The translations under genes and the position numbers were made by a program. DNA of 64,000 bases from Octopus vulgaris (taxonomy: Eukaryota): assembly GCA_951406725.2 (NCBI GenBank), contig OX597814.1:78740001-78804000 (forward strand), read 5' to 3'. A model generated the notes under the pieces. The model did no database searches and had not been told where the DNA came from. It saw only the letters and a program-made list of their open reading frames with translations. This document shows positions 46,421 through 49,484 of the stretch, piece after piece. Numbering within the stretch: position 1 is the first letter of the stretch; every line of letters starts with the position of its first letter.

Positions 46421-46658
46421 AAACACCATTTGGATGTGGCTATTGCCAGTACTGCCTGACTGGCCCTTGTGCTGGTGGCACGTAAAAGCACCCACTATAC
46501 TCTCGGAGTGGTTGACATTAGGAAGGGCATCCAGCTGTAGAAACTCTGCCAGATCAAGATTAGAGCCTGATACAGCCATCTGGTTCGCCAGTCCTCAGTC
46601 AAATTGTCCAACCCATGCTAGCATGGAAAGTGGATGTTAAACGATGATGATGATGATG
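46421..46658 (+). mobile_element. RTE-X-type 3'UTR (family C)
   Basis: GTGCTGGTGGCACGTAAAAGCACCC...AGGAAGGGCATCCAGCTG...GTTAAACGATGATGATG. Confidence 0.85.
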
Positions 46659-47149
46659 AAGTAAAAGAAAGATATATATCTATTAATAAACGGATATTTA
46701 TCTAAGCTAGGAGGTTGTTAGGATAACAGACAGATAGAAGGATAAATAGAAGATTGGGGATATTAGAAGAAGAGATTGATGGGTAGATGGATGGACTGGA
46801 AGATGGATAGATAGGGAATCGAGAGATAAATTAATAGATAATTAATGTATTATATATAATTACTACATACAATTGATGTTTATTGTATTAATGATACGAA
46901 TGTGTGTGTGCTTGTGTGTGCATATGGAGAGAGAGAGGGGGAAAGAGAGAGCAAGTGGATTTGAGAAAGAAAGACTAAAAAGACCAGAAATGAGTTATAA
47001 GTGAAAGAATGAAGAAATTGAAATGTGTAAAAAACATTGAGAAGCAAATATTTACTTGTCTTTTAAAAACATTTTTGTTAACTTTTTTAATGTTCTTTTC
47101 TGTCTCTTACTCTGTTTTTTTAAAATATAAACAGAAAGGAGTTATATAG

Positions 47150-47189
<40 letters not shown>

Positions 47190-47224
47190 CAATAATAATT
47201 CTCTAAATATATATATATACACAG

Positions 47225-47266
<42 letters not shown>

Positions 47267-47399
47267 TACATTTATATATATATATATACATACATACATA
47301 CATATATATACATACATACATATATATACATATATATACATACATACATATATATACATATATATATATACATACATACATATATATACATATATATAT

Positions 47400-47432
<33 letters not shown>

Positions 47433-47451
47433 CATACATACATATATATAC

Positions 47452-47482
<31 letters not shown>

Positions 47483-47493
47483 CATATATATAC

Positions 47494-48533
47494 ATATAGG
47501 TAAACAGTAAAAATAATTATAGACATGGACAAGAACATGAAACGCCACAGAGACGACACAAGAACCACAGGACGGGACATTCGAAGCCCTCAGTCATCAG
47601 TCAAGAACCAGATCATCTTAGCAATTTCGGCTGATTAATCTTGAGATTGCTCCGATATGGGCAGCCCGCCACGGGAAATCTAAGCCAAGTGCATTAGATC
47701 CCCTGGAAGAAAGCTTCGAATGTATACAACACGAGGACGGAAAACGAACGAAGTACACGAACAAAAATACAGAATACGTGACAACAATAAGAATACAAAA
47801 ACGTAAAAACAATAACGGTAAAAATAAAGTATAAAAAATAAACAACAAAACAAAACCAGGACGTAGGACAAGGGTCTTTCGACAGGACGAATTGAGCATG
47901 GGGCTGGCTTATGAAGTTGTGCCTAATGGCCACAGGGAGACGAACAAGTACGTGTTGCTTCAACGGCTGCTGGAACGAAAAGAGCGCTCAACAGCGGTCA
48001 GCGGTCACGTGAGAACAAAAGACAAGAGAAAGGGACAGATGAAAAGAGAGAGAAGGTGGACGAGGGAGGAGAAGAAAGAGACAGATCGAGGGGGCTGGAG
48101 GTGAGAGAGATAGAGAAACGTAGAAGGGGGGGGAAACGGATGGAGAGGGAAAGAAAGGAGGGGGAATAAGGGAGGAGAGAGAGAGAGAAAGAAAGATTAA
48201 GAGTCGTATCAATGCTTGAGAAAAAAATATATACTTATCGTATAAGGACAATTGTGGATACGTAGCCGCCGATTATATAGGTAAACAGTAAAAATAATTA
48301 CAGACATGGACAAGAACATGAAACGCCACAGAGACGACACAAGAACCACAGGACGGGACATTCGAAGCCCTCAGTCATCAGTCAAGAACCAGATCATCTT
48401 AGCAATTTCGGCTGATTAATCTTGAGATTGCTCCGATATGGGCAGCCCGCCACGGGAAATCTAAGCCAAGTGCATTAGATCCCCTGGAAGAAAGCTTCGA
48501 ATGTATACAACACGAGGACGGAAAACGAACGAA
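47494..48533 (-). mobile_element. Young non-autonomous partial-tandem element (781-bp unit, 259-bp direct terminal repeats; PLE pseudo-LTR-like) inserted in a (TA)/(CATA) microsatellite
   Basis: 47494-47752 and 48275-48533 are identical except 47520 T versus 48301 C; CpG-rich; no TG..CA ends, TSD or coding homology seen. Confidence 0.8.
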
Positions 48534-49484
48534 ATACATACATACATACATACATATATACATACATATATATATATACATATATATATATATAGATACA
48601 TATATATATATATATATACACATACATATAGATATATATATATACATACATATATATATACACACACACACACATATGTATATATATAAATGTGTATATG
48701 TATACATACACATAAAGACATATTTTCCCTATATGCGCACACACACACACACACAAATTTATTGCCTATATACGCAAACATATATACATGTTTGTGTGTG
48801 TGTCAATAGACAAATCAAAACACATAACTCAGACATATATATATTCCTAGTTATACACACAAATACACACTATACTTCAGAGAATGGTAGCATGGCTGTC
48901 TTTCTTCGTGAAGAATTAAATCAGGGAGGAGACTGTTTTGCTTTTGACAGAATTGAACTGAAAACAGGAGTCAGAGTAGCTGAGTTGAAATGATTGAAGT
49001 AATCTTAAACATCTGGTGAAGTTTGGAGGCAAAAATGAAGCCAAAAAAAAAAAGAACAAAAAAGAAAAAATCTACCCTAAACATAAAGAAAAAAAAAAGA
49101 AAATGACAACTCACAGGAAAAAATATATAAAAAAACCTAAGAACAACAAAAAACTCTAACCCCTCCCCCTCCAACCTCATAAATACTCTTGCAACAACTG
49201 AAGAAGGAAAAAAAAAAAAAGGTCCCTAGCAGACCCGGCAGCCTTATTAAAGGGTAATCAACTGTCACAAAGTTTCACAGTCACCCCAGCATCATACACA
49301 GGAGAGGCGATATAGATGTGAAATGTGCACATAAATGAGCAGCTGTATGTGTGAAGTAGTTTAAAATCGTTGGAACTAGTTATTGGCACTCACGTACACA
49401 ACACACACCTCACACATATACACAGGGAAGAAAAAAGAAATTGTATAATGATATATAAATAACGATGGCATTCTGAAAGTAGAA

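Follow-up and report, generated by a model that had tools for sequence, protein, structure and literature searches.

Eckert et al. (2023; PMC10085705) distinguished six block orders for the hammerhead ribozyme, with stem II assumed to lie directly after CUGAnGA, and examples of the SGC and CSG orders, which carry X-like helices, were shown to cleave co-transcriptionally. In the part of that study used here, all SGC examples came from metatranscriptomes and CSG was represented by two metagenome sequences, no SGC or CSG is reported from an animal genome or retroelement, and at most 1–2 nt are inserted between A9 and G10.1. For the Naiad group of Penelope-like elements (PLEs), the sections of Craig et al. 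(2021; PMC8557442) on which we draw report no canonical hammerhead; eight Naiads are marked ‘HHR_half_core’, the second half of the core lying 35–50 nt away on either side. Animal non-LTR retrozymes are described by Li, Clavereau and Pollet (preprint, 10.64898/2026.07.22.740005) as non-coding tandem units of 51–972 bp with one hammerhead each, derived from PLE pseudo-LTRs (citing Cervera and de la Pena 2020), and circles of these retrozymes are reported in the preprint's introduction. The portion of the preprint used here searches type I motifs only and names Naiad only as a clade, and the corresponding portion of PMC13725137 merely cites alternative permutations.

The window analyzed here is a stretch of 64,000 nt from Octopus vulgaris (contig OX597814.1, positions 78,740,001–78,804,000), and all coordinates given without a locus name refer to it. 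We read the locus, with a probability of roughly 0.78, as a tandem element of non-coding 781-nt units that inserted recently and is likely a non-autonomous retrozyme of the Naiad type of PLEs, with a predicted rewired hammerhead that likely cuts after AUC.

The insertion and its family in the genome

The whole insertion (47499–48533, minus strand) consists of 1.33 head-to-tail monomers of a non-autonomous element, as delimited by its junctions and by family alignment; its 3′ end is fixed at 47499 and its 5′ end is truncated at ∼48533–48538. One 781-nt monomer without a long ORF occupies 47499–48279 (minus strand), and an internal TATATA at the monomer junction (48274–48279, minus strand; 30/30 loci) is the likely priming site. 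Unstranded (TA)/(CATA)n arrays flank the element, the target array on its 3′ side (47143–47498) and another on its truncated 5′ side (48534–48714), in agreement with the microsatellite setting described in an earlier, sequence-only reading of this DNA. The two 259-bp direct repeats of that reading, 781 bp apart with one mismatch, are likewise present (47494–47752 versus 48275–48533, 99.6% identity), as are their CpG richness (observed/expected ratio of 1.05 in the monomer versus 0.21 in the window) and their non-coding character (longest ATG ORFs of the element, 93 aa on the minus strand and 68 aa on the plus strand). The 259 bp do not, however, constitute a defined terminal repeat; they reflect the truncation point of the window copy.

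When the repeat was used as a query against the 2.8-Gb genome, 2482 first-look candidates were obtained, and the best 40 of these 2482 were scored and were 99–100% identical. The exact (TA)5-3′ junction pattern recovered 338 insertions, with a control count of 0. The element is represented by at least 338 young insertions in the genome, not by a duplication confined to a single locus, which the sequence-only reading had named as fatal to itself. The common 3′ end at 47499 was found in all 30 fetched loci, where the internal TATATA runs into genomic (TA)n. The 5′ ends vary, being scattered from q40 to beyond q1750 (where q is the position minus 47498), and the ∼780-nt units are arranged head to tail, up to at least three per locus. 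Among the first 100 insertions in genome order, 72 end in the first unit, 25 were scored as ending in the second (one of which, L190, is an internal deletion with no true end), and three exceed the fetched DNA. A fixed 3′ anchor with variable 5′ ends is the anatomy of 5′-truncated retroposition of a minus-strand RNA.

Fixed-length repeats at both ends, the mark of LTR retroelements and LTR retrozymes, are not found, since the 5′ ends are scattered. The element displays the partial tandems, 5′ truncation and (TA)n targets of Naiad-type elements, and the non-coding tandem unit of non-LTR retrozymes, with a predicted hammerhead core in each unit; the type I hammerhead of those retrozymes is absent. 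The earlier proposal of a non-autonomous, PLE-derived, retrozyme-like partial tandem is supported, as is a unit of 781 nt running from one predicted cut site to the next.

Related repeats also occur in other arrangements. At L019:2185–2584, two copies of the older family 2 lie inverted beside a young insertion of family 1 in the same (TA)n array, and motif families are co-located likewise in L042, L137 and L159. Six near-identical motif matches at ∼19–27 kb spacing (C1:132427359–132533173) suggest a large tandem segmental array. Within the window, 46500–46640 gives the impression, from its sequence, of a common short interspersed repeat.

A predicted hammerhead core with rewired strands

All parts of the RNA domain lie on the minus strand. 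Folding closes the domain with an outer stem, P0 (5′ strand 47709–47723, second copy 48490–48504; 3′ strand 47577–47591), and places a hairpin, P1 (47674–47703; second copy 48455–48484), between P0 and the 5′ strand of stem II. The 15-bp stem (47723–47709 with 47591–47577) and the 10-bp hairpin drawn in the sequence-only reading are thus both present, and all four non-Watson-Crick pairs of the two long stems are G-U on the minus strand, as it had stated. The 5′ strand of stem II (47662–47666, with G10.1 at 47666; second copy 48443–48447) lies 21 nt upstream of C17, detached from CUGAUGA. It is followed by the 5′ strand of helix X (47654–47660), which pairs with the 3′ strand at 47608–47614 (6/7 pairs in the window copy), and by the non-bulged strand of a K-turn-like loop (G, G, A; 47651–47653). 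The S block (47639–47650) contains the 5′ strand of stem III with AUC (47650–47645; U16.1 at 47646, C17 at 47645) and a strand of stem I (47644–47639). The G block (47621–47633) contains the 3′ strand of stem II (47633–47629), then GAAA (47628–47625) and the 3′ strand of stem III, the latter two together spanning 47628–47621. The partner strand of the K-turn-like loop, with its bulge (47620–47618) and G-A-U (47617–47615), leads to the 3′ strand of X, and the stem I partner strand (47606–47601) is joined directly to CUGAUGA (47600–47594) in a segment at 47594–47606, after which no stem II partner follows. A second, identical domain occupies 48358–48504.

The sequence-only reading had proposed that this structure stands in place of a hammerhead, with no GAAA or UH site in hammerhead register. 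Our analysis contradicts both points: GAAA pairs through A15.1 with U16.1 of the AUC at 47647–47645, within the very 6-bp arm that the reading had drawn, and the bases after AUC pair with those directly preceding CUGAUGA. CUGAnGA, GAAA and a UH site with the A15.1-U16.1 pair are all found in the domain, which is predicted to form a hammerhead core with a non-circularly permuted, core-opened wiring. Two of the domain's helices are pseudoknots and are lost in a nested fold; nested minimum-free-energy folding was rejected as a guide, as it misses stems I and II and fails to separate the strands. The folding z-score is −3.09 for the minus strand and −2.95 for the plus strand, so the supposed strand specificity does not extend to energy, and the polarity of the element is instead assigned from the core words and the fixed end. 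A stem II formed from bases directly after CUGAUGA with a 2-nt bulge was discarded since it is not conserved. A dimer driven by the loop palindrome was discarded as well, the palindrome, which had been listed as a feature, not being conserved in a 75%-identical family.

The order CUGAnGA–stem II–GAAA of types I, II and III is not found, as no GAAA occurs within 60 nt past the core. Two properties of the SGC and CSG classes are present, namely a non-circular S/G/C block order and a helix (X) linking the free strands of stems I and II. An intact C block is absent, the stem II partner lying 21 or 27 nt upstream of H17. Judged by its predicted pairing, the domain is outside types I–III and, because its C block is split, strictly also outside SGC/CSG. 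Its strand order on the minus strand (stem II 5′ strand, X, S block, G block, X′, stem I′, CUGAUGA) circularly permutes that of Eckert's type CSG, the chain being opened between A9 and G10.1, and P0 and P1 are predicted to hold the two open ends together. A search of Rfam returned no match at the gathering score, and its 26 weak hits (miRNA) all fell within the microsatellite flanks. At 47657 and 47661 (and at 48438 and 48442), alleles in other runs and in some family copies would mend the X mismatch and add a G-U pair to stem II; the window copy pairs slightly worse than its relatives.

Matches to two generic patterns with the S-G-C order numbered 573 and 970 in the genome, compared with 98 and 76 for their reversed controls. 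We compared 73 hits (30 loci per pattern plus 13 regions of listed non-dominant hits), unfiltered for stems I and II, which are related rather than independent, 26 of them coming from one family; two duplicates among the 13 regions were kept in the slid-register test and later replaced by the window family and family 2. Stem I was paired at 0.82 in register versus 0.34–0.43 when slid. The stem II partner peaked 21 nt upstream of H17 (0.72, 28 perfect) and 27 nt upstream (0.58, six perfect), with 0.23–0.54 at other offsets and perfect pairing right after CUGAnGA in 0/73. For the 23 of these copies that share the spacing of the window copy, the named structure had 83% of cells paired (slid controls, 18–39%), the core and the inner three pairs of stem III being imposed by the search patterns; many copies are decayed, with stem II 73% paired. 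Double changes occurred in 18/22 pairs in these 23 copies, a value equalled by 0/500 shuffles, and were distributed over all four helices (4/5 in II, 6/7 in X, 4/5 in I and 4/5 in III). The sequence-only reading had looked to covariation among genomic copies as its test, and the covariation of all four helices supports its suggestion that the minus-strand RNA is under structural selection.

In 92 complete domains, taken from 100 insertions of the family, the core is almost invariant; its letters and the UH site are retained, and N7 and H17 vary. In the 75%-identical family, N7 varies and compensatory changes are found in stems I and III. A pattern scan of metagenomes gave 15 matches, none with stem I pairing by eye, which we took as chance.

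In the loop linking stem III to X, each strand carries GA at a constant position, and there is a 3-nt bulge. Tandem GA occupies the K-turn positions in 52/73 and 51/73 hits for the individual strands and on both strands in 44/73. A canonical helix, a 3-nt bulge, tandem G.A/A.G and a further helix are all present, including in the window copy, and by its sequence pattern the loop fits the K-turn consensus. Such a loop makes a one-molecule fold plausible.

Insertion 5′ ends and the predicted cut

The core and a pile-up of insertion ends place the predicted cut of the first domain between 47645 and 47644 and that of the second between 48426 and 48425, 781 nt from the first, both on the minus strand. 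A template cut 3′ of C47645 would retain q146 as its final base. Thirteen of the 72 first-round 5′ ends fall at q137–146 (three exactly at q146) and none at q147–170, where 1.0–3.0 ends were expected at q137–146 and 0/20000 simulations reached 13 there under any of six models, microhomology weighting included; at most 17 of 20000 simulations had 13 ends in any 10-nt window. Two more second-round ends lie at the same site one unit later. The next-best clusters hold five ends per 10 nt, indicating that the clustering of 5′ ends also has other causes. From the many genomic copies that end at the predicted cut site, evidence that is indirect yet specific, the RNA likely self-cleaves after AUC (47645|47644 and 48426|48425); genomic traces such as this pile-up, marking the likely in vivo cut site of a PLE ribozyme, are rare.

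The following mechanism would account for these data. A K-turn between stem III and X would bend X back so that it clamps stems I and II at their tips within one molecule. A transcript of tandem copies would be cleaved at one site after another, giving 781-nt units that may in part circularize. A PLE protein acting in trans would nick (TA)n and use the internal TATATA to prime reverse transcription. If the template were linear and already cut, the enzyme would run off after 146 nt, leaving the pile-up of short copies, and on a circular or uncut multimeric template copying would continue, yielding 1.x- to 2.x-mers such as the window insertion.

For the circle step of this mechanism there is a rival account, in which cleavage takes place but the multimers derive from read-through of uncut tandem donors or from template jumping; this applies to the circle step only, and there we regard it as possible, with the odds leaning towards circles. 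Tandem donors of at least three units exist (L002–L004, L015/L016 and L132), 28/100 insertions are longer than one unit with only two seen to pass two units, and one insertion, L243, breaks off at q146 and resumes near q121, showing a template jump. Against this account, every tandem locus seen has the same seamless junction between units, and circles are reported for animal retrozymes (10.64898/2026.07.22.740005, introduction). Contigs of runs that we guess to be RNA cover the unit and a 781-nt back-joint, which tandem DNA would give as well; contigs from four guessed-RNA runs and four runs of unknown kind cover the unit, and ends, strand and circles are indistinguishable in them, so that they were set aside as evidence. 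None of the runs confirmed as RNA was found to contain the element. Contigs matching 47523–47648 (runs X1, X5, X8, X10 and X18) belong to a related motif family, which has a contig depth of 213–365 in four guessed-RNA runs and 0 exact pattern matches in the genome.

The geometry of the joints bears on a second alternative, that the core is active only in trans, with the S/G hairpin loop of one copy kissing the stem II 5′ strand and I′-CUGAUGA of a second, and cleavage thus confined to tandem or dimeric RNA. The joints between X and stem III measure just 3 and 6 nt on the two strands, leaving little room for a one-molecule fold; covariation is blind to cis versus trans pairs; and dimer cleavage of small PLE hammerheads is reported, to judge by a title in the reference list of PMC10085705. 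We nevertheless consider this unlikely, as the conserved tandem GA and 3-nt bulge of the joining loop are what is expected if a kink folds X back, the loop palindrome is not conserved, and ribozymes of the SGC and CSG types, which carry X-like helices, are shown to cleave during transcription in the part of PMC10085705 used here. Least probable of all, and in our view improbable, is a conserved non-catalytic 3′ RNA element (for instance for RT binding or stability) with short copies arising from RT stalling or (TA)n microhomology: activity and tolerance of the A9/G10.1 break are predictions, and 5′ ends do favor AT/TA dinucleotides ∼2- to 2.5-fold, with such dinucleotides at q137–140, but the kept core and UH site with variable N7 and H17 are as in active hammerheads, the pile-up exceeds the microhomology-weighted expectation with its edge exactly at the predicted cut, and a structural stall would be unexpected once the 3′ strands of all four helices have been copied, as they have by q137.

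Naiad relatives and comparison with described systems

One motif family in the genome corresponds to the 3′ end of the Naiad_Ovul consensus as published, and at three loci (L346, L348 and L351) the motif lies 1.2–1.6 kb downstream of the YxDD motif of the RT on the same strand; L347, of the same protein family, has a GIY-YIG motif upstream of the RT. The motif downstream of these Naiad RT remnants has the same architecture and spacing as the window element and belongs to a different sequence family. The presence of the same fold downstream of Naiad RT remnants supports the Naiad link drawn in the sequence-only reading. The remnants are broken, with a longest open frame of 292 aa among 107 matches (10 loci examined).

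An autonomous RT-encoding element sharing the repeat, which the same reading had proposed to look for, was found neither among the Naiad remnants nor at GIY-YIG loci nor in regions upstream of the motif, and these loci yielded no autonomous N-terminal-endonuclease partner with sequence identity to the unit. Regions of ∼5 kb upstream of other motif families (13 loci) contained no PLE RT frame, one having unrelated RT fragments. At 20 GIY-YIG loci, the long ORFs seen were those of C-terminal-endonuclease PLEs, none with the motif or with similarity to the monomer. A young, intact two-ORF PLE family inserted in (TA)n was observed at L316–L321, L329 and L330 (e.g., L319:568–4268), with an ORF1 of up to 479 aa without a Pfam match and an ORF2 of 781 aa containing RT, with GIY-YIG at the C terminus. 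By eye, this L319-type PLE has a pseudo-LTR with a degenerate type I hammerhead-like core near L319:5150–5190. This intact (TA)n-inserting C-terminal-endonuclease family is a candidate mobilizer, without similarity to the unit.

We inspected by eye 18 published Naiad 3′ ends out of 54 consensi, five whole and the others over ∼the last 600 nt. The opened form was seen in 5/18 (Naiad_Obim, Naiad_Ovul, Naiad_Esco with an imperfect stem II, Naiad_Bfor with a stem I of only 2 bp, and Naiad-2_Movir) and an unopened CSG with all four helices in 4/18 (Naiad Parc, 3_Nbra, Hpol and Smim). The remaining 9/18 (Mmer, Omin, Adux, 1_Skow, 2_Dst, 3_Dst, 1_Chem, CGi and Tama) had no such fold resolvable in the part seen. 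As a circular permutation of CSG, the opened form could have arisen through deletion within a tandem. The 3′ ends of Naiad_CGi, Naiad-1_Skow and Naiad-1_Chem (PMC8557442) share by eye a different conserved motif that appears to be paired, which may be another structured or catalytic RNA.

Beyond this locus we favor, with less assurance, a broader proposal: that a hammerhead wiring outside the six published permutations, core-opened and K-turn-clamped, is active in animal genomes and is the missing ribozyme of Naiads from ctenophores to cephalopods (with unopened CSG in nematode and spider Naiads), where it would drive Naiad-derived circular-RNA retrozymes whose cut site is recorded as a 146-nt insertion pile-up. 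If so, non-circularly permuted hammerheads would move from anonymous metatranscriptomes into animal genomes, and the core would tolerate interruption by two helices between A9 and G10.1, a property useful for ribozyme engineering. An undercount would also be suggested for retrozyme surveys using type I descriptors. A search of the open-licence literature gave no report of the opened fold or its Naiad link and no precedent for a chain break with two inserted helices at A9/G10.1.

Compared with CSG and SGC as described in the part of PMC10085705 used here, the window domain shares the cyclic S/G/C order, the conserved core letters, a 4–5 nt linker between stems I and II, and an X that joins the other strands. 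It differs in its split C block, which the six-permutation scheme excludes, and in having P0 and P1 at the opening and a K-turn-like III-X loop. Like Naiads, in the sections of PMC8557442 cited above, the window element shows (TA)n targeting, partial tandems and 5′ truncation; unlike them, it encodes no protein and has no sequence link to a particular autonomous copy. With the non-LTR retrozymes of 10.64898/2026.07.22.740005, to the extent that the preprint is drawn on here, it shares a non-coding tandem organization with one predicted hammerhead per unit. Since these retrozymes are defined and searched by type I hammerheads, the window unit would be missed by such surveys, and, unlike them, its family consists of dispersed, 5′-truncated copies of 0.05 to 2.x units that lie in (TA)n and share a fixed internal priming site.
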